Source of the DNA: a virus
Lineage: Duplodnaviria > Heunggongvirae > Uroviricota > Caudoviricetes
Direction: 5' to 3' (one strand)
Length of the DNA stretch: 64,000 nucleotides
Virus record (IMG/VR): IMGVR_UViG_2700989400_000004
Location: 1-64,000 of that record
Under the pieces are notes generated by a model that did no database searches, was not told the DNA's origin, and saw nothing but the letters and a program-made list of their open reading frames with translations. Shown one piece after another: positions 1,147-58,768 of this stretch (its first letter is position 1; every line of letters begins with the position of its first letter). The translations under genes and the position numbers were made by a program.

Positions 1147-1152
1147 CGGCCG

Positions 1153-2815: not shown

Positions 2816-2844
2816 CTAATCCCCCACGTTGAACATTAATATAT

Positions 2845-2865
2845 AAAAGCCCCTTACTAAGGGGC
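2845..2865 (-). terminator. rho-independent terminator after lipoprotein gene
   Basis: GCCCCTTA/TAAGGGGC stem followed by T-tract on minus strand. Confidence 0.55.
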
Positions 2866-2879
2866 TTTGCACGGATTGT

Positions 2880-4022: not shown

Positions 4023-4156
4023 ATCCCTATTCCAAATGAAAATATTCAGATTAATCTTATCAGGAACCCAGATGCAATTGAATATTCATCTGCTCAGCAA
4101 CGTAGTAGATTTCCTCAGAAAGCATCAACAAAAAACCAAGAGAATCCCATCCTCTG

Positions 4157-4444: not shown

Positions 4445-4998
4445 GCGCCTGTTTTCTCCCTGGCTGCCCGGCGCTGGCGTTTGCGCTTCTCATTCAGCGC
4501 CATCAGCCGCATTTCTGCCTCGTTCTGTTTCTGTGGTGTCACCTCGCCGCACGGCTGGCCTTTCAGGTCATAGCGCACCCCACCAGCCATTAAGGCGCGG
4601 TAATAGCGCGGACACTGCGCATAAGATGCCAGCGTCGCACGTAATGCCCCTGGACCGAATGCCAGCCCCCTGACGGCGATATCCTGCATCAGGTCGTCGA
4701 ATATCCCCACCTTAAGTGGCTTCGGTGCTTCCCGGCTGAATAATTCAGGCCACAACTCAGTGAGACGGTTAACGCGCCTGCGGTTTTTGCGCTGGCGTTT
4801 GGTCATATGCCGCCACGGTGTCGCCCCTGTGGGCTTCTGCTGCGCTTTCTGGTTACCGGGCATCACTTTATGTGCCGATGTGGTTTTATCCTGCTTCTGT
4901 GCCGCCTGCGTCGTTTTCTGCGGCGTGCCGTAAATACCTTTCGGTTTTCTGTTAATGGTCAGTTTTGTCATGCTCTGCCCCATCATTGTTGCCGTCAT
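4441..4998 (-). CDS. ProQ/FinO-domain RNA chaperone-like protein
   Basis: LKVGIFDDL, RATLASYAQCPRYYRAL and RYDLKGQPCGEV align with the ProQ N-terminal domain (LKIGIFQDL, RSALRLYTSSWRYLYGV, RVDLDGNPCGEL). Confidence 0.6.
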   Translation of the reverse strand: MTATMMGQSMTKLTINRKPKGIYGTPQKTTQAAQKQDKTTSAHKVMPGNQKAQQKPTGATPWRHMTKRQRKNRRRVNRLTELWPELFSREAPKPLKVGIFDDLMQDIAVRGLAFGPGALRATLASYAQCPRYYRALMAGGVRYDLKGQPCGEVTPQKQNEAEMRLMALNEKRKRQRRAAREKTGA

Positions 4999-5149
4999 AT
5001 CGGCACGTAAAAATAAAACAGTCTCATTGTCAGTTACCTGTCAGCTTTTATGCCTTTTCCGGGTGGGATGGCTGACAGTAGTCAATCGTAATACAAAATT
5101 TGAACAACCTTTTTTTCTGTACTCTATAAGGCGTAAAAAAACATTTTTT

Positions 5150-5430
5150 ACCGGGATATCGGGATATAAACAAAAAAACCCCATTTATTTCATAGCGTTA
5201 TGTGATTTTTCATATCCCGCCATATCCCGGTAAGTTTTTTTTTGCTTATGCATCAATAAGATATTGCGGGATACATTCCGGGATACGGTTATTTTGTTTG
5301 TTTTACAACCACTCGTAAACCTAAATACCGGGATACGGCGGGATACAGCGGGATACGACAACAACACATAAATAACTGATATTTATGCAATATATTTTTC
5401 ATATCCCGATATCCCGCATATCCCGCGATT
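5150..5430. repeat. iteron cluster, about 12 copies of CGGGATA in both orientations (putative satellite replication origin)
   Basis: AT-rich 300 bp immediately 3' of the primase gene; direct and inverted CGGGATA/TATCCCG groups near 5152, 5210, 5265, 5330 and 5400. Confidence 0.6.
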
Positions 5431-5457
5431 TTTGACCCTCTGCGAGCGTAGGTTGTG

Positions 5458-7590
5458 CTATTCGTCTTCTGCCTGATCAATCAGCACGATAAATCGCTGC
5501 TGTGTTCCGTTAATCTTCACTGTTTTCGATGTCCAGCGACCAGGTTCTGCACAAACCAGCATTCCGGCTTCTTCCAGCGCCTGACACCCAAAGTTCCTGG
5601 ATATACCGCATAAAATTTCGCTATCAAACACTGACGGGATAATGTGATATTCGGGTTTTCCATCCTCACGCTTACCGCTGACAAGATAGCCTGCAAGATT
5701 GCTTATACGGGATGCATAGTGGTTATCCATATCCCCATTGCTTTTCCCGTAGGTATAAGGCTGAAAACGACTCAGGGCATGGCGCTGAATAAAGTCACGG
5801 GCGCGACTGATGACCTGATATTTTTCCCGGTTTTCCAGCCCGAAATCCTGTAGCCAGTCATCAAAAGCCCGTTGCGTTGCTTCCCGGCATTCTTCAGCTG
5901 TCCAGCCAGTAATTGCGGTGGCAAGCTCTCCGGCTGCATCCAGCATGGCGAATCGCGATGCCACTCGCCTTACCTGTGACGAGGCATTTTCAGGCAGATT
6001 TCCCAGCCAGGCATTTTCTTTATCTGAAGTGGTGTTGATAGCCAGCTCCTTGTGAGCGGATAACCAGCGCACCCACTCACGTCCCGCAGCGCCACAATAA
6101 TTTGATGAAAGTCGCTTTATGGCCCTGGCATGTTGATCACCATCGTCATAACCGTTAAACACCGTTGTATCGGTAAAGGGAATGCTTAGCAGTCGCACCA
6201 GTTGCCCTGCCTTTGGGGCAATTCCCCCTTTTAACAGGAAGGTTTCAAAATCTTCTTCTCCGGTGCTTAGTGCCGCTATTTTCCAGCGCATTACCGCACG
6301 ATTACCGCCGTCCTTGCGCCCCTGAATCCTGCCCACACCGTTAAACAGGCTGTAGGCGGATTGCGCAATGTCATTAACCCTTCCTCCCTGACCAATTTCA
6401 TCAATAGGGATAAAACCGTCATTACGTGCAGCTGCTTCCACTGTCAGCCCGTGCCGGGTGGCATCCCACGAGAGTTTAAGCATTTCAGGGTCGCCATAAA
6501 GGCTGGTGGCGGCCTCCACAGTCGTGGTTTTCCCCGCTGACGACTGCGCGAAAAGATGAATACCAAAACAACTACCACCCACAAGGGAATTTAGCGGGGC
6601 TGCCAGCCCGACCAGCACCCCAAGCATCATTGAGTGATTGCCACGCATCAGAGAAGCAACATTATTTCGCCATTCATGCACCGTGCCCCTGACAATATAG
6701 CCTTTGATGGCGGCAGATCCGCCGCAGAATGCTACGGGACGGTCAGGCACACCAATCACCTCGCCATCAGGCATAACATAGGCTCCACAATGCCAACCTG
6801 CTGTTGATGTGACCTCCCACACCGTGCGATCTCCATGACGTTGCAGGTATTCCGCCAGTTTGTTCAGTAAATGGGCACTGGTAGTGATTGCAACTCCCCG
6901 CCCACGTAATCGCGCCCATCCTGCGGGCATACCGATTTCATTGCGCGGCATCGCTTCGTAAATAATTTTTTGTGTCCCTTCCGGGATCATTTCAATGATC
7001 AGATACGCTTCCCTTCCGTCGTTACCAATACCTGCCGTGCGCATCCGGTCACTCAGCCAGGTTTCTTTATAATTCATCTCCTCTGCCCTGGTGTTGGGGA
7101 TTGGCTCGATATACCAGAGCGCCCCGTCTTTTTCGGTAATATGCGGTTTCATGGGGTCTGTTTTACCGGGTGATCCACCAGCTATTCCGATTCCTTCAGG
7201 AATGGTTTCCCCGCGCTCTGTCTGTTCGCGGATCCGTTGCAGGTAGTCGCGCCAGTTCTCCGGCTCCCGGTCGGTGATGCCTTTGTATAATTTCGCATCC
7301 TGTACGCCAGCCAGCGCCAGCTTTTCAGCGATAGCATTGATCTGGATTGGCTCTATCTCCCCCGCGATATAAACACGCGCAAAGCGGCGCTCATCGTCGA
7401 TAATGCGGATATTAGCCAGATCTGCCAGTTGCGTTGGCCCCAGGTAAACAGGTGGCACGTTATCGCCGTGTTTTCGTCCTTCGCTTTCAATCCAGTGTTG
7501 AGCATGGGCGTAAGCATCCGTCCCGGCAAAAATGATTACCTCGGTGAATTTATCCTTTGGCTGATATTTTAAATTCGGTGCGTTTTTCAC
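5458..7590 (-). CDS. primase/helicase replication protein (Toprim plus NTPase, P4 alpha-like)
   Basis: 710 aa; Walker A-like AQSSAGKTT; domain order typical of satellite primase-helicases. Confidence 0.8.
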   Translation of the reverse strand: MKNAPNLKYQPKDKFTEVIIFAGTDAYAHAQHWIESEGRKHGDNVPPVYLGPTQLADLANIRIIDDERRFARVYIAGEIEPIQINAIAEKLALAGVQDAKLYKGITDREPENWRDYLQRIREQTERGETIPEGIGIAGGSPGKTDPMKPHITEKDGALWYIEPIPNTRAEEMNYKETWLSDRMRTAGIGNDGREAYLIIEMIPEGTQKIIYEAMPRNEIGMPAGWARLRGRGVAITTSAHLLNKLAEYLQRHGDRTVWEVTSTAGWHCGAYVMPDGEVIGVPDRPVAFCGGSAAIKGYIVRGTVHEWRNNVASLMRGNHSMMLGVLVGLAAPLNSLVGGSCFGIHLFAQSSAGKTTTVEAATSLYGDPEMLKLSWDATRHGLTVEAAARNDGFIPIDEIGQGGRVNDIAQSAYSLFNGVGRIQGRKDGGNRAVMRWKIAALSTGEEDFETFLLKGGIAPKAGQLVRLLSIPFTDTTVFNGYDDGDQHARAIKRLSSNYCGAAGREWVRWLSAHKELAINTTSDKENAWLGNLPENASSQVRRVASRFAMLDAAGELATAITGWTAEECREATQRAFDDWLQDFGLENREKYQVISRARDFIQRHALSRFQPYTYGKSNGDMDNHYASRISNLAGYLVSGKREDGKPEYHIIPSVFDSEILCGISRNFGCQALEEAGMLVCAEPGRWTSKTVKINGTQQRFIVLIDQAEDE

Positions 7591-7877
7591 TTCTTACCTC
7601 CCGCAACCAACATTGCCCGGATTTTTTTAATATTCGAGGCTGCACGTCTTGCCACCGCCAATTGTTTGTTTTCCACCAGAATAAAATCACGCTCAAACTG
7701 ACGGCGCGGCATTACGCAGTCATATTCGTAAGCCTCACGGCGGTAGGTGATATTGCCTGGCGTAACGTGACGAATAACCACTCGTCCCCCACGTCTGGTG
7801 TCGCGGTAAATATCGCCAGAGCGAATTGCAGACCGAGAGAGGCCGCTGGCAGTAAAGCCAGAATTTTTCTTTTTCAT
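7587..7877 (-). CDS. hypothetical basic protein
   Basis: 96 aa ORF in operon with 4-nt overlaps. Confidence 0.4.
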   Translation of the reverse strand: MKKKNSGFTASGLSRSAIRSGDIYRDTRRGGRVVIRHVTPGNITYRREAYEYDCVMPRRQFERDFILVENKQLAVARRAASNIKKIRAMLVAGGKK

Positions 7878-7881
7878 GGTT

Positions 7882-8082
7882 TTATTTTCCTGTCAGCAGT
7901 TCCGGTTTTATTCCTGCACGAATACATAGTTCAGAAAAGCCTTCTACCGTACTTACAATTTCATTATTTCGCAGTCGGCATTGTGATTTCACTTTCCCTT
8001 TATCCAGGTAAACCAGTACGCGCCCGGTGAAATCATCTGGCACATTCAGGGTAATTGTCATTGTTGCTGGCTGATTACCCAT
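7882..8082 (-). CDS. hypothetical protein, one copy of FTGR...FSEL domain
   Basis: 66 aa; paralogous to the repeated domain in 8075..8440. Confidence 0.4.
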   Translation of the reverse strand: MGNQPATMTITLNVPDDFTGRVLVYLDKGKVKSQCRLRNNEIVSTVEGFSELCIRAGIKPELLTGK

Positions 8083-8440
8083 GACTTCCCCCCTGAATGA
8101 TCCGGTAATCGCAACGGGTCAGCAGTTCGCTAAATTCCGGCAGTGTTCCGAAACAGCAATCATCACGCAGCCGTTCGCGGGATACCTCGACGCCGTTTTC
8201 GTAGTGACTCACCATGCGTCCGGTAAAATGCAGATCATCATCGTGATGGTTCGTTAACGGCTTAATAAGTCGCGCACGTTCTGCCAGTTCCAGCAATGCT
8301 TCAACGCTTCCGGCAATTGCACCATCCGGCAGGTGATAATTACTTACCACGCGTCCATTCTCCACGTTAACCAGTAGCTGCTCGGTGAATTTCTCACGAA
8401 ACTGAATGCTGTTAAGGTCAGAAATTGACAGGTTATGCAT
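8075..8440 (-). CDS. hypothetical protein with two tandem FTGR...FSEL-type repeats
   Basis: 121 aa; internal duplication visible by eye. Confidence 0.45.
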   Translation of the reverse strand: MHNLSISDLNSIQFREKFTEQLLVNVENGRVVSNYHLPDGAIAGSVEALLELAERARLIKPLTNHHDDDLHFTGRMVSHYENGVEVSRERLRDDCCFGTLPEFSELLTRCDYRIIQGGSHG

Positions 8441-8798
8441 GGTGCACCTCCTGGCGAATACGGGCAGCGAATACCATCACGCAGCCATCAGGAGATTGCT
8501 GACGCGCTTCCTGTTCGCTGGTGGCCTCGATGTGAATTACGCGCGGTTGTGCTGTGCTCAGGGCGATAAAACGCCAGATAAAATTGTTCTCGCATTTCTG
8601 AATAAACAGCGTGTTTTCTTCGCGCCCTTTCCATGTTGCCGAGATATAGCCCATGTCATTGAGCATCTCGCAGGCATCAACCAGCGTATCAGCGGCTACG
8701 TGTACAGTGTTTTTACCGTCAGCTATGCAATCACGGTGCACCGCCAGGAAGGTGTATATAAATTTAGGGTGAGTTTGGGTATGCTGTGTTCCAGCCAT
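8433..8798 (-). CDS. hypothetical protein, first gene of leftward operon
   Basis: ATG at 8798 with GAGGT Shine-Dalgarno; 121 aa; same frame remains open upstream to 10019. Confidence 0.5.
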   Translation of the reverse strand: MAGTQHTQTHPKFIYTFLAVHRDCIADGKNTVHVAADTLVDACEMLNDMGYISATWKGREENTLFIQKCENNFIWRFIALSTAQPRVIHIEATSEQEARQQSPDGCVMVFAARIRQEVHHA

Positions 8799-8863
8799 AA
8801 TCGTTACCTCGTTTAACGGTTTGGTTAGACGCCCTGCATGTGTGCCACCACTGCGGGGCGTTG

Positions 8864-8898
8864 CTGTATATACACCACAATCATTAGTGTATATACAG
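8864..8898. promoter_or_regulatory. operator-like perfect inverted repeat CTGTATATACAC-N11-GTGTATATACAG
   Basis: 12-bp perfect arms seen directly; lies between divergent 8433..8798 (-) and 8989..9294 (+). Confidence 0.6.
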
Positions 8899-8988
8899 AT
8901 TAGATTTAAGTGTGCTACAGTGTCAAGTGTTTTATCAACACACCTTTTGGTGTAATGTGTACACACCTCAAAATAACCGGACATTCTG

Positions 8989-9294
8989 ATGGCAACAGGA
9001 AACATCAACAGCAGATCGCAAATGAAAAATATCCGCTTCCCCCATGATGTAATCGAGGAAATGGAAAATTCGAAAACGGAAGGGGAAACAATAGCCGCTT
9101 TCGTGATTACAGCCGTTCGCGGTGAAATCGCCCGCCGCCAGGCAGAAGGAAGCGGAGAAAATCCCCTGGTTTCTTCGCTCGATGCACTGGCGCAGGTGGA
9201 AAAAATCGGTGTCAAAGCAGCCGAGGAGATCGGGCAACTCGTCACCGTCGCGCGTGAAGAACTCCAGCGGCGCAAGGCCAAAGAACAGGAGTAA
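8989..9294 (+). CDS. putative Arc/Mnt-like ribbon-helix-helix regulator
   Basis: KNIRFPHDVIEEMEN...AAFVITAVRGEIARR resembles the Arc repressor fold pattern; conflicts with a long open frame on the opposite strand. Confidence 0.35.
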   Translation: MATGNINSRSQMKNIRFPHDVIEEMENSKTEGETIAAFVITAVRGEIARRQAEGSGENPLVSSLDALAQVEKIGVKAAEEIGQLVTVAREELQRRKAKEQE

Positions 9295-10011
9295 CCATCA
9301 CCAGCGCCGTGGTGTGAGGAACTACGGTGCATCGTTTTACAGGGCAGCGCCATGACCAACAAAGAATCAACCAATACACCATCACCGGCACGGAAAAGAC
9401 AGCGCAGAAAGATAGCGTACGAGCATGAGTCAGACAGATTCGCGCCCTGTGCGTTTATCCTTGAGAAATTCCTTAAAGAGTACAGGCGCACAAAAATGGG
9501 GTCGCATACCTGGAAAACATCGCGGCATGGCGATGTTAAAGAGCAGGAATAGCCCACCAGCAAGCCAGCATATTCACCATAATGACCCTCAGTTAAACCT
9601 AGAGTCATTGGTGCAAAGCTGACACATTGCCCACCAGCCGCAAATGTGGCATTGTTGGTGATGCGTTCAAGTATGTAGCTTTTCCACTGGCGGCTCTCTG
9701 CGGTCGCCTTTGTTTTATCCAGAACGAAATCAGACATCAGATTGATCAGCACCTGGCGACCTGACAAAATCGCATCAGTCGCGCCACCAGCAGTATTTTT
9801 TGCTTTCCGGACAGCTTGGCCAACTGCATTTTGCAGCAAAATATTCTGCATTTCTGGCTTACTGTGATAACAGTGATCAGCGCCTTCACTCTGTACGACC
9901 ACAACGCTATAATCTGCCTCGTAGACAGTAAGCAATATGGCGCAGTAAGCGACTTGTTCACAAAGGCGCTCCGGCAACGGGGCGCTTTTTCTTTTTGTAA
10001 CGGTCAGAGCA

Positions 10012-10812
10012 TTACACATGGCTGTTTTCCTCCATGCGACGGGCTAACCAACGCTGCGAAAGACGAATTAATTCAGCTTTCCGCTGGTGGTAGTCCTGGC
10101 CTAACTCAATCAGCGTGATATTGCTCTGCTCAAGGTAAGAAAGATGCTCAAGCTGCAACGTGCTCATGTGGTCGCGTGGTTCGCCTGTGATGCCGTTCGC
10201 CTGCGCCCACTGTTTTGCAGTCATGCCACCCAGCACGATACGCGCCAGCATATTGGCTTCCGTGGTGTAGTGGTGCTGTAGAGTGTTTTTACCCAGCTCA
10301 GCCCGGTACGCCTCCAGCGCGGCACACATTGGCTTAAAGTAGCTGGCAACTGTGATACGGGCTTTCAGTTCCCGGCGTAACACTGCGGAACGCACTGGCG
10401 CTACCTTGTGTAGCTCCTCCTCGCATTTGATAAAGTACTGACGAACGGCGCGGCCCTGTTCGGTGCGTTCGACCATCGCCAGTTCTTTCGCCATGTTCAC
10501 TGTGATGATGTACTCAAGAGCTGTTTGCTGGCGAGATTTTGCGCTCACCGGATCGGGTCGGCTCAAATATTCAACAACCTCATAATCCACGCCTTCCGTG
10601 AACCCGTATTCTTCAATGCGCCCCTTGATCCACGAACGGAAAACGCGCCCTACACCTAACGCCTTATGTAACGCTCTGGCGCTAACAATAGTGGTTTCAC
10701 GCCCACCAATAACGCCGGAAATAACCGGAATAATTTCAGCGAAATTTTGCAGATTCTGTTTTTCAGGCCGAACGAAGCCCCGCCCCTGTACAGGCGTATA
10801 TCCAGTATTCAT
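10012..10812 (-). CDS. phage antirepressor-like protein (Bro-N/AntA-type N-terminus)
   Basis: N-terminal IIPVISGVIGGRETTIVSARALHKALGV...EYGFTEGVDYEV. Confidence 0.6.
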   Translation of the reverse strand: MNTGYTPVQGRGFVRPEKQNLQNFAEIIPVISGVIGGRETTIVSARALHKALGVGRVFRSWIKGRIEEYGFTEGVDYEVVEYLSRPDPVSAKSRQQTALEYIITVNMAKELAMVERTEQGRAVRQYFIKCEEELHKVAPVRSAVLRRELKARITVASYFKPMCAALEAYRAELGKNTLQHHYTTEANMLARIVLGGMTAKQWAQANGITGEPRDHMSTLQLEHLSYLEQSNITLIELGQDYHQRKAELIRLSQRWLARRMEENSHV

Positions 10813-10864
10813 GGTTAAATCTCTGTATTAGTGGATGGGAGGCGGCTGTGTGCCGCCAGCCTGA

Positions 10865-11053
10865 TTAGTGAACTGCCTCGCGGCTGTCCTTCCATGCCAG
10901 AACTTCGGATAAAGACCAGCCAACGGAACGACCACCGAGTTTACGCCGTGATGGGAATTGTCCGGCTTTTTCCAGGCGGTAGCGGCATGAACGGCTCAGG
11001 CCTGTAAGTTGCTGACATTCTTTTTCACGTATAAAGCGATCTGTGCTTAACAC
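10865..11053 (-). CDS. alpA: AlpA family transcriptional regulator
   Basis: 62 aa; LTGLSRSCRYRLEKAGQFPSRRKLGGRSVGWSLSEVLAW is the AlpA-type HTH signature. Confidence 0.75.
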   Translation of the reverse strand: MLSTDRFIREKECQQLTGLSRSCRYRLEKAGQFPSRRKLGGRSVGWSLSEVLAWKDSREAVH

Positions 11054-11416
11054 AATTCCCCCTTTGTTGTTTCTTAAAGAGTCATTGGGTGGATTATTGG
11101 GTTGGGTCGGATTGTGTCAGGGTGTTTATGGAATGGCAAACACTGGTGGCGGTCGTTTTACAGAAGTGGGGTAATGAGAATAAAAACTTTTTTAATTCAT
11201 TGTGATGCAGTAGCGTAAAATTCTGTTTTTACGCCCTTTTTTACATGCTTTTAAGAGTGATTCGCCAATGTACAAAAAGCCAGTAAAACGACTGAAAATC
11301 AACTTTTTAGGGTGTCGGTCAGATGATAATCAAGTTTGTTCCAGATTGTTCGCCGTTGTTCGTCGTGGTGTCTCGTTGTTTCACGTTGTGTCCGTTCTGA
11401 AAAATCGCGAAAAAAA

Positions 11417-12667
11417 TTATATTTCTCTGGCTATTGGCAGTGTGGTTACGTTTTCGTGAGCACCTGCCAGTATCTCTAATCGCTCTGTCCACATATCCAG
11501 CGCGTTACGTTTCGCATCAATATAGCGGGAGTGGTTATAGACTCGTTGCATCCCTGGCATCTGGTGGGCGGTAAGTTGCTCGACAATATGCGGATCCACG
11601 CCTAAATCGTTCAGCATCGTGGTAAACGTGCGCCGTATATCGTGCAGGGACCAGTGAGGATGGTTTAATTTTTTGTGCGTAAATCTGCCGTATTGTGACA
11701 CGCTGGCTTCCTGTTTCAGTTCTCCGAGTAATAACCCTGTGTGCCTGTTCTGCTCCACCAGTTGCGTGACGAACGGCAAAATGCTTTCCGGTATTGGCCT
11801 GAATATGGCGACCTTCGTTTTGCTGTGTTCTTTCGGTACCGTCCAGAGCATTTCCTTAAAATCCCACTCCCTGATCTCCGACAGCCTCAGTTCTCCAGTT
11901 CGGCAGCCAAACACAATCAGGAGGCGGATTAGCGCGCTGTAGTAGGGCGGGAATATTTTTTTATCCAGCGCCTGTAATAATTCGCCCAGTTCTTTGTTAC
12001 TAAGCACGCGTTCGCTTATGCCTGGCTTTTTGCCAACGTCCACCACGTTGAGATCATCCAGAACGTTACTGACTGCGTAGCGACGTTTTCGGCAGAACTT
12101 AAGCGCCTGTTTACACGCCTGCATCATGTGACCAGACGTTACAGGGGATTTTTTGCGTATCCGGTCAAAACAGGCCAGCCAGTGACGTAACTCGCATTTA
12201 TCCAGTGGCATATTGCCAATATGCTGTATGACGTGATTATTCAGGCGGCTGTTCAGGGAGACGTAATCGACACGGTTTTCCTTTACGTGCATTTCCAGCC
12301 AGTAGCTGATCGCATCACCCACCGTTACCGGCTTTAGTGCTTCCTGTATGGAGTAATTAAGCTCATGGCGTGGATTTTTTCCTTCTGCCAGCCATGCGCG
12401 ACACTGTGCCGCTTTTTCCCTGGCTGCTTTCAGGCTCAGATCAGGATAATTTCCCAGCTTCAGGCGTTCCGGTGATACCAGGCGTCCAGCTCCTGCCCTG
12501 TAGGTGAAATACCAGGTTAACAAGCCGCTGGTGGAATGCCTGACGCTCAGGTTTCCACCGTCATTAAGAAATGTGGTTTTTGGGGCTGGTGTGCCGTTGA
12601 TTTTTCTTAGCTGTGTATCGCTCAGTTTGTTAAGTGCTCTGCTCATAATTTTGAATCCGGTCATCAC
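11417..12667 (-). CDS. int: tyrosine-type site-specific integrase (P4-like)
   Basis: 416 aa; N-terminal arm-binding-like domain and C-terminal catalytic region (HxxR...Y); start uncertain. Confidence 0.85.
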   Translation of the reverse strand: MMTGFKIMSRALNKLSDTQLRKINGTPAPKTTFLNDGGNLSVRHSTSGLLTWYFTYRAGAGRLVSPERLKLGNYPDLSLKAAREKAAQCRAWLAEGKNPRHELNYSIQEALKPVTVGDAISYWLEMHVKENRVDYVSLNSRLNNHVIQHIGNMPLDKCELRHWLACFDRIRKKSPVTSGHMMQACKQALKFCRKRRYAVSNVLDDLNVVDVGKKPGISERVLSNKELGELLQALDKKIFPPYYSALIRLLIVFGCRTGELRLSEIREWDFKEMLWTVPKEHSKTKVAIFRPIPESILPFVTQLVEQNRHTGLLLGELKQEASVSQYGRFTHKKLNHPHWSLHDIRRTFTTMLNDLGVDPHIVEQLTAHQMPGMQRVYNHSRYIDAKRNALDMWTERLEILAGAHENVTTLPIAREI

Positions 12668-12668
12668 A

Positions 12669-12692
12669 ATTAACTACACCATTAACTACACC
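12669..12692. repeat. tandem 12-bp direct repeat ATTAACTACACC x2 next to int start
   Basis: Seen directly; candidate arm-type or regulatory site. Confidence 0.5.
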
Positions 12693-12910
12693 GATCATTG
12701 CACAAGGGGGTACAACGTGGAACAAATTGGAACAAGAAAAATTGCAATGAGTTTAAAAATCAAAAACATAATGAACAACGTGGCACATTATGAAACAGCA
12801 AAAAACACTAATTTATAAAATCACGATATTAATAATGTAACTTATATTTTCGTGAAATCTGTCACTGAAGAAAATTGGCAACTAAAGGTTAAAACCGTTA
12901 TAACACAGTC

Positions 12911-13005
12911 ACCGGCGCAGAGGAGACAATGCCGGATTTAAGACGCGGATGCACTGCTGTGTGTACTGTAGAGTCTGGCGGATGTCGACAGACTCTATTT
13001 TTTTA
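12911..13005 (+). ncRNA. mcaS: McaS (IsrA) small regulatory RNA
   Basis: Matches recalled McaS sequence ACCGGCGCAGAGGAGACAAUGCCGGAUUUAAGACGCGGAUG..., ends in a GAGTCTG...CAGACTC hairpin plus U-tract, convergent with abgR as in K-12. Confidence 0.7.
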
Positions 13006-13012
13006 TGCAGTT

Positions 13013-13921
13013 TTAACTTTGCAGATAGCCGCATTCTCGCCGGAATTGCGTGATTAATGACGCGGTCAGTGGTGTCTGGCGACTATCACGCCGCTGAATC
13101 AAATAATAGGCCGCTTTCGGTAAAATTTCGCTAACCGGCAACATCACCAGCCCCTGTCCGTGCAAGGGATCGCAGCCCATTTCTTCAGGCAGTATGCTGA
13201 GAAAATCGCTTTTTGCCACCAGACTGATACAGGCTGAGAACGTCTCGCAGACTACACCGACCTGTGGCGTTTGCGCCTGATCGTCAAGCAATTCACTCAA
13301 CTGTTTGTAGTAGCTGCCGTGTGGCGTCGGCATTGTCCAGCTGTAATCCAGTAACTGTTTGATCGAACGGGCACCAATGGCGGGGTGTCCCGGGCGGCAA
13401 AAGATCGCGAATTGCTTTTCCAGTAATTTCTCAAAAGTAAATTCGTGGTCGTACGGTCCCTGATAATAGGTATTGATGGTGAAATCCAATTCTCCCTGAC
13501 GCAATTCATTAATCATCGACACCAGTTGCCCTTCCATAATGCGTACTTTTACCTGCGGATGCTGCTGATGAAAACGAGATATGACAGCTGGCATCAGACT
13601 GCGGGAAATACTGGCCCCCATGCCGATATTAATCTGCCCTGCCAGTTGCCCTTGTCGTTGGCGAATATCCTCTTGGGCTGCGCGCAGTTCTTCAAGAATA
13701 AGACTGGCGTGCTGATAAAAACTTTCACCGGCATCAGTTAACGTCACGCCTTTACTACGGCGAAAAAAGAGTTGCGCCGCTAATCCTTCTTCCAGCTCCT
13801 GAATAGATTTACTCAGTGCCGGTTGCGACATATTCAACATTCGGCTCGCTCCGCGAATGCTGCCCTGACGAGCCACTTCAACAAAAGCACGAATTTGATG
13901 AATTTTTACCTGAAAAGCCAT
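13013..13921 (-). CDS. abgR: LysR-family regulator AbgR
   Basis: 302 aa LysR-type HTH plus substrate domain; divergent from abgAB-abgT. Confidence 0.9.
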   Translation of the reverse strand: MAFQVKIHQIRAFVEVARQGSIRGASRMLNMSQPALSKSIQELEEGLAAQLFFRRSKGVTLTDAGESFYQHASLILEELRAAQEDIRQRQGQLAGQINIGMGASISRSLMPAVISRFHQQHPQVKVRIMEGQLVSMINELRQGELDFTINTYYQGPYDHEFTFEKLLEKQFAIFCRPGHPAIGARSIKQLLDYSWTMPTPHGSYYKQLSELLDDQAQTPQVGVVCETFSACISLVAKSDFLSILPEEMGCDPLHGQGLVMLPVSEILPKAAYYLIQRRDSRQTPLTASLITQFRRECGYLQS

Positions 13922-14096
13922 GACGCCACCGATAACCGTTATTTATCAGACCAAAGAAACTGGCATCTACTTTAATGCAGATGATTGTGTCAGGGTAATT
14001 TATGAACGGTTAAAACTGTGAAAAATCAGTTAGTGATAAGTAAAAACTATCGCTACGTGAACCGGGTCACACTTTTTACTGATGACGGGAAAGGTT

Positions 14097-15407
14097 ATGG
14101 AGTCTTTGAATCAATTTGTTAATTCGCTTGCCCCAAAATTATCGCACTGGCGACGTGATTTTCATCACTATGCAGAGTCTGGCTGGGTGGAATTCCGCAC
14201 TGCCACCCTTGTTGCGGAAGAATTGCAGCAGCTCGGCTATTCACTGGCGCTGGGCCGCGAAGTAGTTAATGAAAGTAGCCGGATGGGACTACCTGATGAA
14301 CTCACTCTACAACGCGAATTCGAGCGCGCTCGTCAACAGGGTGCGCTAGCACAATGGATTGCGGTTTTTGAAGGTGGTTTCACTGGTATCGTCGCCACCC
14401 TGGATACCGGTCGCCCCGGTCCGGTGATGGCTTTCCGTGTCGATATGGACGCGCTGGATCTCAGTGAAGAGCAGGATGTCAGCCATCGCCCCTACCGCGA
14501 CGGTTTTGCGTCATGTAACGCCGGAATGATGCATGCCTGTGGTCATGATGGACATACCGCCATTGGGCTTGGGCTGGCGCATACCCTTAAACAATTCGAG
14601 TCCGGACTACATGGCGTCATCAAACTGATTTTTCAGCCTGCAGAGGAAGGTACGCGTGGCGCGCGGGCGATGGTCGATGCAGGTGTCGTAGATGATGTTG
14701 ATTATTTTACTGCCGTGCACATTGGCACTGGCGTACCTGCGGGCACCGTGGTGTGCGGCAGTGATAATTTTATGGCAACCACCAAATTTGACGCGCACTT
14801 CACCGGTACCGCCGCTCACGCAGGCGCAAAACCAGAAGACGGTCACAATGCCTTGTTGGCGGCAGCACAAGCCACTCTTGCACTGCATGCAATCGCCCCG
14901 CACAGCGAAGGAGCTTCCAGAGTAAACGTGGGCGTTATGCAGGCAGGAAGCGGTCGTAACGTTGTTCCTGCCTCGGCGTTGCTGAAAGTGGAAACACGCG
15001 GGGCCAGCGACGTCATTAATCAATATGTTTTTGACCGTGCACAACAAGCGATTCAGGGCGCAGCAACCATGTATGGTGTCGGCGTTGAAACTCGTCTGAT
15101 GGGTGCAGCTACCGCCAGTTCTCCTTCGCCGCAATGGGTCGCATGGTTGCAAAGTCAGGCGGCTCAGGTCGCGGGGGTCAATCAGGCCATTGAACGTGTT
15201 GAAGCGCCTGCGGGTTCCGAAGATGCCACATTAATGATGGCCCGCGTGCAGCAACATCAAGGGCAAGCCTCCTACGTGGTGTTTGGCACACAGCTGGCGG
15301 CAGGTCATCACAACGAAAAATTCGATTTTGACGAGCAGGTTCTCGCTATTGCCGTCGAAACGCTGGCGCGCACCGCGCTCAATTTTCCCTGGACGCGAGG
15401 TATCTGA
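14097..15407 (+). CDS. abgA: p-aminobenzoyl-glutamate hydrolase subunit A (M20 peptidase)
   Basis: 436 aa from MESLNQ start; M20 family metal-binding motifs. Confidence 0.9.
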   Translation: MESLNQFVNSLAPKLSHWRRDFHHYAESGWVEFRTATLVAEELQQLGYSLALGREVVNESSRMGLPDELTLQREFERARQQGALAQWIAVFEGGFTGIVATLDTGRPGPVMAFRVDMDALDLSEEQDVSHRPYRDGFASCNAGMMHACGHDGHTAIGLGLAHTLKQFESGLHGVIKLIFQPAEEGTRGARAMVDAGVVDDVDYFTAVHIGTGVPAGTVVCGSDNFMATTKFDAHFTGTAAHAGAKPEDGHNALLAAAQATLALHAIAPHSEGASRVNVGVMQAGSGRNVVPASALLKVETRGASDVINQYVFDRAQQAIQGAATMYGVGVETRLMGAATASSPSPQWVAWLQSQAAQVAGVNQAIERVEAPAGSEDATLMMARVQQHQGQASYVVFGTQLAAGHHNEKFDFDEQVLAIAVETLARTALNFPWTRGI

Positions 15408-16852
15408 TGCAGGAAATCTATCGTTTTATCGACGATGCGATTGAAGCCGATCGCCAACGTTATACCGATATTGCCGATCAAATCTGGGATCATCCAGAAA
15501 CACGTTTTGAAGAGTTCTGGTCAGCGGAGCATCTGGCTTCGGCGCTGGAATCTGCAGGCTTCACCGTTACCCGCAACGTAGGCAATATCCCAAATGCCTT
15601 TATTGCTTCGTTTGGTCAAGGCAAACCGGTTATCGCCCTGCTGGGAGAATATGACGCCCTGGCAGGTTTAAGTCAGCAAGCAGGTTGCGCGCAACCTACA
15701 TCCGTGACGCCCGGTGAAAATGGTCACGGTTGCGGACACAATTTGCTGGGAACCGCCGCCTTTGCCGCTGCAATAGCCGTCAAGAAATGGCTGGAACAAT
15801 ATGGGCAAGGCGGCACAGTGCGCTTTTATGGTTGTCCTGGCGAAGAAGGCGGCTCGGGTAAAACGTTCATGGTCCGCGAGGGGGTATTTGATGATGTGGA
15901 TGCGGCACTCACCTGGCACCCGGAAGCCTTTGCCGGTATGTTCAATACACGCACGCTGGCAAACATTCAGGCATCATGGCGCTTTAAAGGGATCGCAGCA
16001 CATGCCGCGAATTCCCCTCATTTGGGACGCAGCGCCCTTGATGCCGTAACGTTGATGACCACTGGCACCAACTTCCTCAACGAACATATTATTGAAAAAG
16101 CGCGCGTACACTATGCCATCACAGATAGCGGCGGGATCTCGCCCAACGTGGTCCAGGCGCAGGCAGAAGTGCTTTATCTTATCCGTGCCCCCGAAATGAC
16201 CGACGTGCAGCATATTTATGATCGGGTCGCCAAAATCGCCGAATGTGCGGCATTGATGACCGAAACCACGGTTGAATGCCGCTTCGACAAAGCCTGTTCC
16301 AGTTATCTCCCGAATCGCACCTTAGAAAATGCCATGTACCATGCCCTATCCCATTTTGGTACCCCGGAATGGAACTCCGAAGAACTGGCTTTTGCGAAAC
16401 AAATTCAGGCTACGCTCACCCCCAACGATCGGCAAAACAGTCTGAATAATATCGCCGCAACCGGTGGCGAAAACGGCAAGGTTTTTGCACTACGTCATCG
16501 TGAAACGGTACTGGCGAATGAGGTCGCTCCATATGCCGCCACCGATAACGTGCTTGCGGCATCGACTGATGTCGGCGACGTCAGTTGGAAACTGCCTGTT
16601 GCCCAGTGTTTCAGCCCCTGTTTTGCCGTCGGTACACCGCTACATACGTGGCAACTGGTTAGCCAGGGGCGAACATCTATTGCTCATAAAGGAATGCTGC
16701 TGGCGGCGAAAACTATGGCAGCAACCACAGTCAATCTCTTCATTGATTCAGGGCTATTGCAAGAATGCCAACAAGAGCATCAGCAAGTTACGGACACGCA
16801 ACCGTATCACTGCCCTATCCCGAAAAACGTGACACCGTCACCTTTAAAATAA
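15407..16852 (+). CDS. abgB: p-aminobenzoyl-glutamate hydrolase subunit B (M20 peptidase)
   Basis: 481 aa; start overlaps abgA stop. Confidence 0.9.
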   Translation: MQEIYRFIDDAIEADRQRYTDIADQIWDHPETRFEEFWSAEHLASALESAGFTVTRNVGNIPNAFIASFGQGKPVIALLGEYDALAGLSQQAGCAQPTSVTPGENGHGCGHNLLGTAAFAAAIAVKKWLEQYGQGGTVRFYGCPGEEGGSGKTFMVREGVFDDVDAALTWHPEAFAGMFNTRTLANIQASWRFKGIAAHAANSPHLGRSALDAVTLMTTGTNFLNEHIIEKARVHYAITDSGGISPNVVQAQAEVLYLIRAPEMTDVQHIYDRVAKIAECAALMTETTVECRFDKACSSYLPNRTLENAMYHALSHFGTPEWNSEELAFAKQIQATLTPNDRQNSLNNIAATGGENGKVFALRHRETVLANEVAPYAATDNVLAASTDVGDVSWKLPVAQCFSPCFAVGTPLHTWQLVSQGRTSIAHKGMLLAAKTMAATTVNLFIDSGLLQECQQEHQQVTDTQPYHCPIPKNVTPSPLK

Positions 16853-16888
16853 CAACAACAACGCAAACACAACAACCGAGGAATGCCC

Positions 16889-18334
16889 ATGAGTATGTCA
16901 TCCATACCGTCGTCCTCCCAATCCGGGAAGCTCTATGGCTGGGTCGAAAGAATTGGTAACAAGGTTCCCCATCCTTTTTTGCTCTTTATCTATTTGATAA
17001 TCGTACTCATGGTGACGACGGCAATTTTGTCAGCCTTTGGCGTCAGTGCGAAAAACCCGACCGATGGTACGCCGGTGGTGGTGAAAAACCTGCTCAGTGT
17101 GGAAGGATTACACTGGTTTTTACCCAATGTGATTAAAAACTTTAGCGGTTTTGCTCCACTTGGAGCGATCCTGGCGCTGGTTTTAGGTGCCGGCCTAGCG
17201 GAGCGCGTCGGCTTACTGCCAGCGCTAATGGTTAAAATGGCATCGCATGTTAATGCCCGCTACGCCAGTTATATGGTGCTGTTTATTGCTTTTTTCAGCC
17301 ACATTTCTTCCGATGCGGCGTTAGTGATCATGCCACCGATGGGTGCGCTGATTTTTCTGGCGGTGGGCAGGCATCCAGTTGCAGGTTTACTGGCTGCCAT
17401 TGCAGGCGTAGGTTGCGGCTTTACGGCTAATTTACTGATTGTCACAACCGACGTGTTGCTGTCGGGGATCAGCACGGAAGCGGCGGCTGCGTTCAATCCG
17501 CAAATGCACGTCAGTGTAATTGATAACTGGTATTTTATGGCCAGCTCCGTAGTCGTACTGACGATTGTTGGCGGCCTGATAACCGACAAAATCATCGAGC
17601 CACGATTAGGTCAATGGCAGGGAAACAGCGATGAGAAACTGCAGACATTGACCGAAAGTCAGCGTTTTGGTTTACGCATAGCAGGTGTCGTATCGCTACT
17701 TTTTATTGCTGCGATCGCGCTGATGGTGATCCCGGAAAACGGGATATTGCGCGATCCGATTAATCACACCGTGATGCCATCACCCTTTATTAAAGGTATC
17801 GTGCCACTGATCATTCTTTTTTTCTTTGTTGTCTCGCTGGCTTATGGCATCGCTACCCGCACAATTCGACGTCAGGCGGATTTACCGCATTTAATGATTG
17901 AACCGATGAAAGAGATGGCGGGATTTATCGTGATGGTTTTTCCCCTCGCCCAATTTGTCGCCATGTTTAACTGGAGCAACATGGGGAAATTCATCGCCGT
18001 GGGGCTGACCGATATACTTGAAAGTTCAGGGCTTAGCGGCATCCCGGCGTTTGTCGGTCTGGCGTTGCTTTCCTCTTTCTTATGCATGTTTATTGCCAGC
18101 GGTTCCGCAATCTGGTCGATTCTGGCCCCCATTTTCGTACCAATGTTTATGCTACTTGGCTTTCACCCGGCATTTGCGCAAATCCTCTTTCGTATTGCCG
18201 ACTCATCCGTATTGCCTTTAGCGCCGGTATCTCCTTTTGTTCCACTGTTTCTTGGATTCCTGCAACGCTACAAACCAGACGCAAAACTGGGTACTTACTA
18301 TTCGTTAGTCTTGCCCTATCCGCTTATCTTTTGA
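16889..18334 (+). CDS. abgT: p-aminobenzoyl-glutamate transporter AbgT, apparently C-terminally shortened
   Basis: Polytopic AbgT-family protein; 481 aa from MSMSS start versus about 508 aa recalled for K-12; prophage DNA begins right after the stop. Confidence 0.85.
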   Translation: MSMSSIPSSSQSGKLYGWVERIGNKVPHPFLLFIYLIIVLMVTTAILSAFGVSAKNPTDGTPVVVKNLLSVEGLHWFLPNVIKNFSGFAPLGAILALVLGAGLAERVGLLPALMVKMASHVNARYASYMVLFIAFFSHISSDAALVIMPPMGALIFLAVGRHPVAGLLAAIAGVGCGFTANLLIVTTDVLLSGISTEAAAAFNPQMHVSVIDNWYFMASSVVVLTIVGGLITDKIIEPRLGQWQGNSDEKLQTLTESQRFGLRIAGVVSLLFIAAIALMVIPENGILRDPINHTVMPSPFIKGIVPLIILFFFVVSLAYGIATRTIRRQADLPHLMIEPMKEMAGFIVMVFPLAQFVAMFNWSNMGKFIAVGLTDILESSGLSGIPAFVGLALLSSFLCMFIASGSAIWSILAPIFVPMFMLLGFHPAFAQILFRIADSSVLPLAPVSPFVPLFLGFLQRYKPDAKLGTYYSLVLPYPLIF

Positions 18335-55557: not shown

Positions 55558-56029
55558 CTCTTGCGTATAGCTCTTTACGTGTTATCTGCGTGAAAATACA
55601 TTCATGTTTGCACCGTGGATGCCAGATCAAGAACAAGCTCCCTTTATTGTTTCCGCTTGCTGGCTTACCCGTCGCAGCATTAATAAACGCCAGCCGCCCG
55701 CGCGTGATTAAGCGACATTCGCTTGCCGTCTCCAGGCCGTTCATAAACCAGTTAACAGAGATATCAGCGGGCAACAACATTACACAGCCAATATGATTTC
55801 GGTGATGTTCCATCGCTGCCTTATCTACGAATGGCCCCGGATTCGAATATGGCGGATTAAGCCAGACATATTCACCAGGCATTGCTACCGCTCCCCACGG
55901 ATAATGGAGTGTGTCCATCTCTTCGGTTATATATCGCGGAACTAATGCGTTTGCCTTGTTTGCCGCCACATCCGCGACGAATTCGAATTCACGGTCCATT
56001 CCTCTAAAACGGGTTTTGGCGTTTGCCAT
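55541..56029 (-). CDS. phage-type DNA N-6-adenine methyltransferase (Dam family)
   Basis: VWLNPPYS catalytic motif and GCVMLLPADISVNWF...GRLAF. Confidence 0.7.
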   Translation of the reverse strand: MANAKTRFRGMDREFEFVADVAANKANALVPRYITEEMDTLHYPWGAVAMPGEYVWLNPPYSNPGPFVDKAAMEHHRNHIGCVMLLPADISVNWFMNGLETASECRLITRGRLAFINAATGKPASGNNKGSLFLIWHPRCKHECIFTQITRKELYARGANND

Positions 56030-56088
56030 AAGTCCTTTATTTCTTTTGGCGTATGGCTTCCGCCGTAATCATTTTTCATTACGCCCCC

Positions 56089-56436
56089 TTAGAAATAATC
56101 CTGATCTGCTCCCCAGCGGTTATTCAGATATCCCACCAACCACACAAAACGCTCAATACTGATTAGCGGGGCGACCTTGCGATAATGCTTATCTAATATC
56201 AGCCGCGTGGCTTTATCGCTATATCCGTTTCTTTCTACCTCTGCTTTGCAGGCAGAAAGCGCCGCGCGTGCGGCAGTTTTTACGGCGTTGAATTGCGGCT
56301 CTGACAGGTTGAATAAAGCCATATAATCACCACGGATCATCTCAATAAGTCGAGGCCACCCAGAAAAAACCCACGAAAACACTAAAAGCGAATAGCACGC
56401 GTATACCCAAAAGCAATTCCGCCCACGACTGAACAT
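56089..56436 (-). CDS. hypothetical protein
   Basis: ORF in early leftward operon; start uncertain. Confidence 0.3.
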   Translation of the reverse strand: MFSRGRNCFWVYACYSLLVFSWVFSGWPRLIEMIRGDYMALFNLSEPQFNAVKTAARAALSACKAEVERNGYSDKATRLILDKHYRKVAPLISIERFVWLVGYLNNRWGADQDYF

Positions 56437-56563
56437 CAGGAAGCGACCATGTGATAAACATTGCGCCGACGATCAGGACGGCAATAACAACGGCGCACGC
56501 CAGGAAAAATAAAAGCGCGGCTGAAAGCCACGCCCCAAAAAAGTGAAACACTTCTCTTAACAT
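56342..56563 (-). CDS. hypothetical membrane protein
   Basis: 73 aa, two hydrophobic helices. Confidence 0.3.
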   Translation of the reverse strand: MLREVFHFFGAWLSAALLFFLACAVVIAVLIVGAMFITWSLPDVQSWAELLLGIRVLFAFSVFVGFFWVASTY

Positions 56564-56767
56564 TTAAACGTCCTCAATTACCCCGCCTTTCACGCGTTCT
56601 TTAATATCCCATACGTGAGGCTTACACATTTCTTGATAATAGTGATCCGGCCTGCTGCCGAAATACCATTTGCCATCCATATAAAAATAAACGCCCGAAA
56701 AATTACCAGGTGCGGCCTTTGTTGCTGCTTCTGGAATTTTCCATTCTCTGTAGTGTTTAAACTTCAT
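56564..56767 (-). CDS. hypothetical protein
   Basis: 67 aa. Confidence 0.3.
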   Translation of the reverse strand: MKFKHYREWKIPEAATKAAPGNFSGVYFYMDGKWYFGSRPDHYYQEMCKPHVWDIKERVKGGVIEDV

Positions 56768-56960
56768 ACATTAACACCGCCTTTTTAAGTTCGCTTAATT
56801 CAAAGTGCATCAAGCGAAAATGCTGTACACCGCCAACAATACTGACCTGATAAATATCACCAACGCAGTTATAGTAATAACAACCCAATTGACCGATTCC
56901 GGCTAATTTAGCGTTATCCGGTATCATGTATTCGCCAACCTTTTTCATATTCAGCCTCAC
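56757..56960 (-). CDS. hypothetical protein
   Basis: 67 aa. Confidence 0.3.
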   Translation of the reverse strand: MRLNMKKVGEYMIPDNAKLAGIGQLGCYYYNCVGDIYQVSIVGGVQHFRLMHFELSELKKAVLMYEV

Positions 56961-57058
56961 AAATATTTTTCAATCACCCAGCGGAGAAACAAACCAACCG
57001 CCACGATCCCCCAGCAACAAACCATGAAGTAAAACTCGGCCTCATTCGCACTCATTCC

Positions 57059-57545
57059 TTACCTCCCGTGGTTTTCATGATACCCGTACTCGATTTCAGC
57101 TTTACGCCTCGCTTCGATCGCTTCATCTATGCTATCTGAGTAGCATAGATATTTTTTCTTTCCGTCAACGGTAATATAAGATCTCCATTTCTGAGTTAAT
57201 TTATCCCAATAAACACCCGTGCATCCAGAAGTGTTATTTTTCTGCTTAGCTCTATTCTTTGCGTTTTCCTGTCTCGTCACTATTCGAAGGTTATCAAGCC
57301 TATTATTAAGGCGATTATGTCTATATGGTCTATTTGATAGCCTTCCGGGATTGGGCCGTTGTGCATCTCCCATATTATCCTGTGAACGCAATACCTTTTC
57401 CCGCAAAACATAAACCCCTGTACCCACCCTCATACAGAGTACTCCCTGCTACGTCTCCGGCTTTAACCCTGAAACCAGTAGGTTTCTTCCAAATTAGATT
57501 GACTCCGTCGTAATAAAACCACTCTCGCCAGTCAATAGCGTCCAT
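57059..57545 (-). pseudogene. HNH homing endonuclease (HNH plus AP2-like domain) disrupted by two frameshifts
   Basis: Frame 1 MDAIDW...GYRGLCFAGK; frame 3 RYCVHRIIWEMHNGPIPEGYQIDHID; frame 2 NRLNNRLDNLRIVTRQEN...GVYWDK...EEAIEARRKAEIEYG; shifts near GGAAAAGG and GACATAATC. Confidence 0.6.
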
Positions 57546-57635
57546 TGTGTTTTCCCTCTTCCCAAGCGAAATACCCGACAAAACCAACCAGAACAATCAA
57601 CCAGCAAGCCAGGATTAAATCAATCAGCCACATGA

Positions 57636-57875
57636 TTAAGCCTCCATAACCGCGTAATCGAAGCGCCCTAAATACATCTCGATGCCGATCATCTCGACGC
57701 CCTGGACGTCCGCGCCCCATACAGTTACGTGATAAGCGTCCTCCCGCCATTGTTCATGGCTTAGCACTTCGTTTGCTGGATATTTCCGCCCCGCGACGTA
57801 AGCGCCCGGACCTACGCCACCTTCTACGCAATACAGCATGATCTGGTTTTCCATATCGCACCTCGTTAATAGCAA
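57636..57875 (-). CDS. hypothetical protein
   Basis: 79 aa ORF; start uncertain. Confidence 0.3.
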   Translation of the reverse strand: MLLTRCDMENQIMLYCVEGGVGPGAYVAGRKYPANEVLSHEQWREDAYHVTVWGADVQGVEMIGIEMYLGRFDYAVMEA

Positions 57876-58048
57876 ACTGCGTACATACAGATCCCGTTGT
57901 TAAAGGCTTTGATGATCATGTCGATGACCATGTAAACGAGCATTACAGCCGCCGCTGGGACAAGGATCGCGAATAGTCCGCCTAACGTGCGCTCAATAAT
58001 GAAATGCGGGTTTACTTTGCTTTTGTGGTTACGTTCAAAGTTTGTCAT
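57866..58048 (-). CDS. hypothetical small membrane protein
   Basis: 60 aa, hydrophobic. Confidence 0.3.
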   Translation of the reverse strand: MTNFERNHKSKVNPHFIIERTLGGLFAILVPAAAVMLVYMVIDMIIKAFNNGICMYAVCY

Positions 58049-58147
58049 CTTCCCGCCCTCCGTGCTGTATACCTTTCGACTTCAGTTTACAAAACGGATA
58101 CAGCGGGACAATACAAAATGTATATTTATGTGATCGGTATCACGCGA

Positions 58148-58768
58148 TTAATGCAGTACACGTTTTTCCGGGTGAGGCATTGGCTGTGCACGTTTCCGCG
58201 CTTCATTCAGCACTGACGCCACCGCCCGGACGCCAAAATCATTAGCCCGCATATCATTGCCGACCATCTCGCCATAAATAAGCGGCATAAATTGCCTTGC
58301 GTTATCCTCGATGTGTCCATTTTCAACCGCTTTCTGAAGTACGCCAGCCTCAAGGATATCGCGCATCAGTTCACGGATTGTATATAATGAAGCACTACCC
58401 ATCGCCCCTTCGCCCAGCGGGACAATCACCGCGCTACCATATGCAAGCGGATCCAGTTCTTCCGGTACTGGTACACGTCCAAAATCTTCTTCCATGCGTT
58501 TTACGAAAGTAAGGCAGAAGACGTAACGCGCTACCGATGTTTTCTCTTCCGCATTCAAAGATACGTAATCGCGCATTGACGCATCCATTACAAGATCAGC
58601 AATTTGTAGCGCCAGGTTTAAATCCCCGTCATACACGCCCGCGTCCATATCTTTAATGACTTCGTGGTAGTTCTTTGTTTCCACTTCATGAAAACATGCG
58701 TCCTCTGTGTAGCGAGTGATTAACATGCCTTCGCTGCCAAGTGAATAAGCTGTTTTGATGTCGTTCAT
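58148..58768 (-). CDS. hypothetical protein
   Basis: About 206 aa from internal ATG. Confidence 0.4.
   Translation of the reverse strand: MNDIKTAYSLGSEGMLITRYTEDACFHEVETKNYHEVIKDMDAGVYDGDLNLALQIADLVMDASMRDYVSLNAEEKTSVARYVFCLTFVKRMEEDFGRVPVPEELDPLAYGSAVIVPLGEGAMGSASLYTIRELMRDILEAGVLQKAVENGHIEDNARQFMPLIYGEMVGNDMRANDFGVRAVASVLNEARKRAQPMPHPEKRVLH

Follow-up and report, generated by a model that had tools for sequence, protein, structure and literature searches.

Genes in which an HNH nuclease domain is followed by an AP2 domain form a recognised class of homing endonucleases (PMC5714182; PMC10448857), and members from phages, cyanobacteria and protists are attributed to Magnani et al. (2004), as cited in PMC10448857 and PMC5714182. 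The gene studied here can be compared with two well-described systems. I-HmuI of Bacillus phage SPO1 (1U3E; group 2 HNH_3 / zf-His_Me_endon, PMC5714182) has the same N-terminal beta-strand region and beta-beta-alpha-metal HNH domain, with the nuclease joined to a separate DNA-binding module. However, the I-HmuI gene lies within a group I intron and its product ends in a helix-turn-helix, whereas our gene is free-standing, ends in an AP2 domain and is inactivated, and the two share about 23% identity. The IPA-HNH homing endonuclease genes of phage ICP1 are similar in carrying the HNH part N-terminally and the AP2 part C-terminally, and in standing free between phage genes at boundaries of mosaic exchange; one of them, gp115-gp116, has been inactivated by a frameshift that cuts its HNH part off from its AP2 part (PMC10448857). 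The ICP1 genes are too divergent to match Pfam HNH_3 and belong to a lytic vibriophage, while the gene described here matches HNH_3 strongly and resides in a temperate lambdoid prophage of E. coli.

The 64,000-nt stretch of viral DNA that was analysed (the window) contains a single HNH_3 locus, on the minus strand at 57059..57545, which we interpret, with a probability of roughly three in four, as a real and recently inactivated free-standing HNH-AP2 homing endonuclease gene (HEG), now a pseudogene, in a lambdoid prophage. Letter for letter, the window agrees with contig LIVK01000004.1 from the E. coli draft assembly GCA_001420135.1. Positions 1-18332 are E. coli chromosome, consisting of an integrative island and then abgR-abgA-abgB-abgT, and are 99.83% identical to strain 442/2; from about 18333 on follows the prophage, 46 kb long, inserted in the 3' end of abgT and otherwise intact. 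Related prophages in CP044314 and CP076272 occupy the same abgT location. Within the prophage, the HNH gene belongs to the early operon, in which the gene order runs repressor, erf, ssb, many small ORFs, HNH, dam, ninG, rusA, Q, lysis genes, terminase, head and tail.

Some features of the insertion region can be recorded alongside. The abgT ORF (16883..18334) encodes 483 aa in the window against 508 aa when intact, and homology to the prophage-free 442/2 stops at 18332; in CP044314, the abgT beside the related prophage is labelled an incomplete pseudogene by RefSeq. A separate integrative island adjoins abgR at about 1-12667. According to the annotation of the 99.8%-identical CP076282, the genes of this island include a tyrosine integrase, an HTH regulator, an AntA/AntB antirepressor, and Icd-like, DUF927, DUF4222, ProQ/FinO and PerC-family genes, and the element looks like a phage satellite or a P4/PICI-like element.

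The ends of the pseudogene are exact, with the ATG at 57545-57543 and the TAA at 57061-57059, giving 487 nt from ATG to TAA compared with 489 nt in the intact allele. Between them, three successive frames encode MDAIDW...GYRGL, then (F)CGKRYCVHRIIWEMHNGPIPEGYQIDHID, and then (H)NRLNNRLDNLRIVTRQEN...HENHGR followed by the stop; read from 57545 down to 57059, the open segments contain MDAIDWREWFYYDGVNLIWKKPTGFRVKAGDVAGSTLYEGGYRGL..., ...FCGKRYCVHRIIWEMHNGPIPEGYQIDHID... and ...HNRLNNRLDNLRIVTRQENAKNRAKQKNNTSGCTGVYWDKLTQKWRSYITVDGKKKYLCYSDSIDEAIEARRKAEIEYGYHENHGR with the stop codon. The first segment (57411..57545, minus strand) keeps the native frame from the start codon through codons 1-45 and corresponds to the N-terminal beta-strand region, which aligns with the N-terminus of I-HmuI. 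The second (57320..57404, minus strand; FCGKRYCVHRIIWEMHNGPIPEGYQIDHI(D)) holds the first half of HNH_3, that is Pfam positions 2-25 with the invariant Asp73-His74. The third (57059..57319, minus strand; HNRLNNRLDNLRIVTRQEN) holds the second half of the HNH motif with the invariant N86 and N98, followed by the AP2-like domain and the native stop. In tblastn searches with six homologues, collinear matches in frames -3, -2 and -1 appeared at this locus only, with summed E values of 2e-85 for the intact allele and of 1e-33 to 1e-41 for relatives at 50-59% identity, so the three-frame match is far above chance. The coordinates and the three-frame layout given by the original prediction, which had been made from the letters and their open reading frames, were thus right.

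The inactivation can be read off against an intact allele, WP_311021365.1 (162 aa), encoded in another E. coli draft genome, GCA_031702445.1 (locus L003), and found by an exact-sequence look-up in which the 56-aa N-terminal fragment clusters with the 162-aa protein. The two genes share the insertion site, occupying the same prophage position, and are 98.4% identical at the nucleotide level; over 489 nt they differ by 6 substitutions and by two gaps of a single base each, and the window copy is accordingly 2 nt shorter. Frame disruption relative to a near-identical intact allele thereby supports the claim of an HNH-AP2 endonuclease gene disabled by two net one-base deletions. Adding 2 nt in silico yields a 162-aa ORF that differs from WP_311021365.1 by four amino-acid changes (I4V, Y38G, G40D and C46F, written from window to intact allele) and one silent site, the substitutions falling in five codons, four of them non-synonymous. 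Apart from the second lesion, the 3' 350 nt of the window copy equal the intact allele, and the inactivation should therefore be recent.

The first lesion lies at 57405..57410, where the plus strand reads AAAACA against A7 in the intact allele; on the coding strand the intact allele has TTTATTTTTTTGC, with its T7 run, and the window TTTATGTTTTGC, so that T7 has become TGTTTT through a net loss of one base and one substitution (T>G, F46C), shifting the frame at codon 46-47. The original prediction had put this shift in the A-run GGAAAAGG (plus strand, 57394-57401), but that run is the same in the intact allele and the true position is 4-9 nt upstream of it in gene orientation. As the lesion precedes GGAAAAGG, the CFAGK of the earlier reading stems from the shifted frame, where the native protein has FFCGK. 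The second lesion, between 57319 and 57320 on the minus strand, was placed correctly, between GA and CATAATC: one base has been lost, changing coding GATCAT to GACAT, with no homopolymer at the site. Placing lesion 1 in an A5 run (GGAAAA(A)GG), or taking lesion 2 for a change of CC>C, is excluded by the intact allele. Since both lesions are one-base losses, they do not compensate each other, and since the first precedes the catalytic domain and the second lies inside it, no ORF can encode a complete HNH domain.

The family assignment of the ancestral gene rests on several comparisons. The intact allele scores 84.8 bits against Pfam HNH_3 (PF13392), well above the gathering cut-off of 24.8, and its assignment in PHROGs is phrog_99, 'HNH endonuclease'. 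Residues 53-96 of the intact protein make up the HNH_3 (His-Me finger) catalytic domain, which spans 57257..57390 on the minus strand and is broken by lesion 2; this lesion divides the profile between positions 25 and 26 and sets Asp73-His74 apart from Asn86 and Asn98; in the window, accordingly, one ORF matches positions 2-25 (47 bits) and a different ORF matches positions 26-45 (24.4 bits). D73, H74, N86 and N98 are invariant across 62 homologues and all four are still encoded in the window, yet no single polypeptide of the window copy carries the D-H...N...N set, because D73-H74 are read in frame 2 but N86/N98 are read in frame 3. Judged by its sequence, the ancestral gene is a member of the HNH_3 / His-Me finger family, and the present copy is no longer able to make the domain.

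A profile built from the 62 homologues matches I-HmuI (1U3E) in the PDB over residues 2-108 (E=8e-10) and, over residues ~101-151, plant AP2 domains (WRI1, E=1e-3; TEM1, E=5e-3). The AlphaFold2 model of the intact allele has a pLDDT of 91.5, and in a Foldseek search against the PDB I-HmuI 1u3e ranked first (probability 0.99, E=4e-3). The predicted AP2-fold DNA-binding domain (57080..57232, minus strand; residues ~105-155) consists of three beta strands and a helix, modelled as strands 112-115, 120-127 and 130-137 and helix 140-153, and superposes on AtERF1 1gcc, WRI1 7wq5 and TEM1 7et4 with an rmsd of 1.4-1.5 A over 39-48 columns (probability 0.99-1.00). The intact allele scores 14.4-15 bits against Pfam AP2 (PF00847) and does not reach its gathering score of 33.3; precomputed PF00847 matches are present on some homologues. 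The label HNH-AP2 is justified by the fold and profile evidence, even though the Pfam AP2 threshold is unmet. The ancestral gene was a free-standing, I-HmuI-like HNH_3 plus AP2 homing endonuclease gene, whose endonuclease activity and target we infer from the described members of the class.

Among other explanations, the one that deserves most weight is that the gene is intact in the real strain and that the two missing bases are errors of sequencing or assembly, which we consider unlikely. The source is a 2015 draft assembly, and a literature search on its accession for the sequencing platform returned no paper. Lesion 1 sits in a 7-nt homopolymer, three one-base deletions (two in HNH, one in Dam) fall within 1.5 kb and could reflect a locally poor assembly, and the HNH fragments occur in no independent assembly: database entries with a contig all trace to LIVK01000004.1, and the 104-aa annotated fragment (P0004, UniParc) has no contig on record and forms a 90%-identity cluster of that one entry. 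Against this, no homopolymer surrounds lesion 2, and a miscalled run length would not by itself explain lesion 1, in which a deletion is combined with a transversion. Moreover, comparison of window 1-18332 with the 99.83%-identical finished genome 442/2 gave 26 mismatches, one 5-nt repeat indel and zero single-base indels, over a stretch that holds 124 homopolymers of at least 5 nt, 14 of them at least 7 nt. The sole indel, at window 11096, is one 5-nt unit of a TTGGG-type repeat near the island antA/antB. The suggestion of homopolymer sequencing errors, which the original prediction had offered as an alternative to decay, thus fits poorly, with one lesion outside a homopolymer, the other complex, and no length errors in 124 runs. 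Likewise, when 78 CDS of a related prophage are compared with the window, frame breaks are confined to two of them, HNH and Dam, and all other prophage genes with relatives are in single frames.

The Dam lesion also bears on this question. The frameshifted gene for the Dam N6-adenine methyltransferase (PF05869; 55541..56079, minus strand) lies 1 kb from the HNH gene, its lesion at 56006-56009 on the plus strand (coding T5>T4). One ORF of 45 aa covers Pfam positions 1-21, and a second of 162 aa, opening with an out-of-frame ATG (MANAKTR...), covers positions 19-167. The 162-aa product is found, residue for residue, in the independent Logan assembly SRR33511316, whose HNH site is empty, and two more allelic backgrounds have a frameshift-type Dam of 162 aa: MADAETC..., known from 16 contigs, and another MANAKTR... 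allele. Because the Dam deletion recurs in an independent assembly, the assembly is not generally unreliable in the HNH-Dam stretch, which argues indirectly for a real HNH pseudogene as well. The sequences further suggest, from synonymous differences in the native LWQTPKPV frame, that the Dam lesion may be recurrent or spreading, possibly through slippage at the T-run.

That the only two frameshifted genes, HNH and Dam, both encode products acting on host DNA could be read in another way, in which host-level selection in lysogens repeatedly silences leaky, genotoxic DNA enzymes of prophages, or in which short homopolymers act as phase-variable switches, and the AP2-only ORF might be kept as a DNA-binding protein. 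We regard this as improbable. On the preferred reading of a recently inactivated pseudogene, the decay could be a neutral loss in a repressed prophage that meets no HEG-less partner, or could result from selection against a leaky nuclease.

How the gene came to its site can be followed from prophages that lack it. Relative to these empty-site prophages, the window carries an insert of ~0.5 kb (57035..57536, minus strand) that replaces 4-8 nt of the empty site; the insert is present in the window and L003 and absent, with flush flanks, in loci L001, L002, L007, L008 and L010. The empty site, with flanks joined directly, is thereby visible in five related prophages (CP076272, CP044314, STEC308, UMNK88 and SRR33511316_46 of the Logan assembly), for instance at CP076272 1492100-1492250 and in SRR33511316_46 around ...ACACAATGGACGCTGAAAT..., and this bears out the proposal that the gene is a mobile insert at a former target. 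The HEG start codon and the next two codons (ATGGACGCT, 57537-57545) are part of the shared flank. An upstream hydrophobic ORF of 33 aa (MWLIDLILACWLIVLVGFVGYFAWEEGKHNGRY; 57532..57633, minus strand), whose cluster has 12 members in the protein collection (11 others, of 32 aa), ends in a stop that overlaps the HEG start codon. A downstream hydrophobic ORF of 32 aa (MSANEAEFYFMVCCWGIVAVGLFLRWVIEKYL; 56957..57055, minus strand) begins in empty sites at ATGGACGCT, which is now the HEG start, and in the window it has received from the insert a new Shine-Dalgarno sequence and ATG (AGGTAAGGAATG) and a new N-terminus. In the empty sites the two tiny hydrophobic ORFs overlap at ...AATGGACGCTGA..., and the overlap of these 32-33 aa mini-ORFs by ATGGACGCTGA suggests that they may be translationally coupled; the two look unannotated and may encode small membrane peptides.

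Lying between two small ORFs with a start and a stop codon of its own, the gene is embedded in neither an intron nor an intein; an Rfam scan of 56000-58500 at E<=1 returned neither an intron nor any other RNA. The signature of an intron-less homing site, for which the original prediction had proposed to search the neighbouring genes, is consequently inapplicable to this free-standing gene, around which no Rfam family was found. Phage nuclease genes in general lie at mosaic boundaries (PMC10448857), and the same pattern is seen here: the HEG is 98-100% identical between its two carriers and the 300 nt just downstream are 69-88% identical, so that a mosaic boundary falls at the HEG 3' end. These same 300 nt are 89-99% identical to the HEG-less L001 and L007. 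The element is thus more conserved than its flanks and adjoins a recombination boundary (n=2 carriers). Co-conversion of flanks, considered as evidence for homing, was rejected: the flanks of the two carriers are no more alike than background, and the claim is therefore limited to a mosaic boundary. With n=2 carriers, homing and ordinary mosaic recombination look the same as means of spread, and homing is what we infer.

Further HNH genes are present in related genomes. L003 holds a second HNH_3 gene (9429-10489 in GCA_031702445.1; 165 aa, ~50% identical, unrelated site) in tandem just upstream, which makes a two-HEG island there, and this second insert is missing from the window (junction ~57636-57672). 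Related prophages have 2-3 HNH_3 genes each, at differing positions. Genes that are ~55-59% identical, in E. coli prophages and in phages mEp515, LPST10 and VLCpiS13b, have the full-length architecture in common with ours but occupy other genomic sites. The HRIIWEMHNGPIPEGYQIDHID core (window 57320-57393) shares 86% of its nucleotides with a paralogous HNH gene located elsewhere in the related prophage of CP076272 (L001 10814-10887), and the rest of the window HEG is much more diverged from that paralogue; HEG paralogues could perhaps recombine through this core.

The element is rare, and it is dead in one lysogen. Megablast found the HEG in none of 5,426 complete E. coli genomes, 35 of them with a related prophage, and in none of 50,697 phage records, the matches in both searches being confined to the flanks. 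An exact pattern across lesion 2, with 0 or 1 base allowed, gave no match in metagenome, viral and GTDB-representative contigs, so the census of alleles is limited to two genomes, the window and GCA_031702445.1, which is the only other genome known to hold the gene and holds it intact. The nearest full-length protein besides WP_311021365.1 is 59% identical, in a search of 5.8 billion clusters in which the intact allele itself is unlisted, belonging as it does to the cluster of the fragment. Decay after fixation, as first suggested for this locus, is therefore unsupported: the HEG is rare rather than fixed, being absent from all 5,426 complete genomes and from the three contig collections.

By analogy with its relatives, the C-terminal AP2 domain and N-terminal beta-strand region of the intact enzyme would together bind a long asymmetric site that lies, in HEG-less relatives, at or near the empty junction, and the beta-beta-alpha-metal HNH domain (Asp73-His74, Asn86 and Asn98) would nick or cut near the bound site. 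Recombinational repair from an HEG-carrying genome, during co-infection or an encounter of prophage and phage, would then copy the ~0.5 kb cassette into the junction of the two overlapping tiny ORFs, where the cassette would take over the start codon of the downstream ORF and give that ORF a new ribosome-binding site and ATG. Subsequently, two independent one-base losses would have occurred in the window lysogen. In a repressed prophage without an HEG-less partner nothing would maintain the nuclease and its leaky expression could be harmful, so that decay by frameshift would be expected.

A remnant of the gene might have been put to new use, with the 3' ORF (57059..57433, 124 aa), or its 104-aa form from an internal ATG, serving as a nuclease-dead AP2 regulator or blocker. 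Nothing of the AP2 domain has been lost from this ORF, which still ends at the native stop; each of the two possible start codons follows a plausible SD-like motif (GGAG at a distance of 8 nt, AGGA at 4 nt), and AP2 or HEG DNA-binding domains have been recruited elsewhere, some as repressors, e.g., CapR, CasPRs and plant AP2 factors. However, the allele was seen once, its truncated form bears no sign of conservation or spread, the N-terminus would consist of 19-39 out-of-frame residues, and the 3' part has no nucleotide difference from the intact allele, which leaves too little time for any selection to be visible; we find such exaptation very improbable. That the gene still functions, whether by programmed ribosomal frameshifting at both lesions or as a split enzyme of several subunits, is scarcely credible, since nothing specific speaks for it beyond three collinear segments that are each open, while two one-base losses need two successive +1 shifts at sites not known as shifty, the intact allele and >200 homologues are single ORFs, and lesion 2 halves the 46-residue HNH motif.

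Loss by frameshift is an ordinary and well-precedented fate for homing endonuclease genes, and the window copy, read as a recently inactivated pseudogene, is a dead member of a well-known class. Its significance is mostly one of annotation: the locus, of which a 43-aa fragment carries the RefSeq name 'HNH endonuclease signature motif containing protein', should be entered as a single HNH-AP2 pseudogene in place of three small ORFs. Beyond that, the intact, dead and empty alleles, resolved to the nucleotide, provide a clean small example of the life cycle of a homing endonuclease in a temperate phage, and the trio is a ready substrate for specificity tests of an uncharacterised HNH-AP2 enzyme. 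The gene also adds one more data point for nuclease genes at mosaic boundaries between phages.
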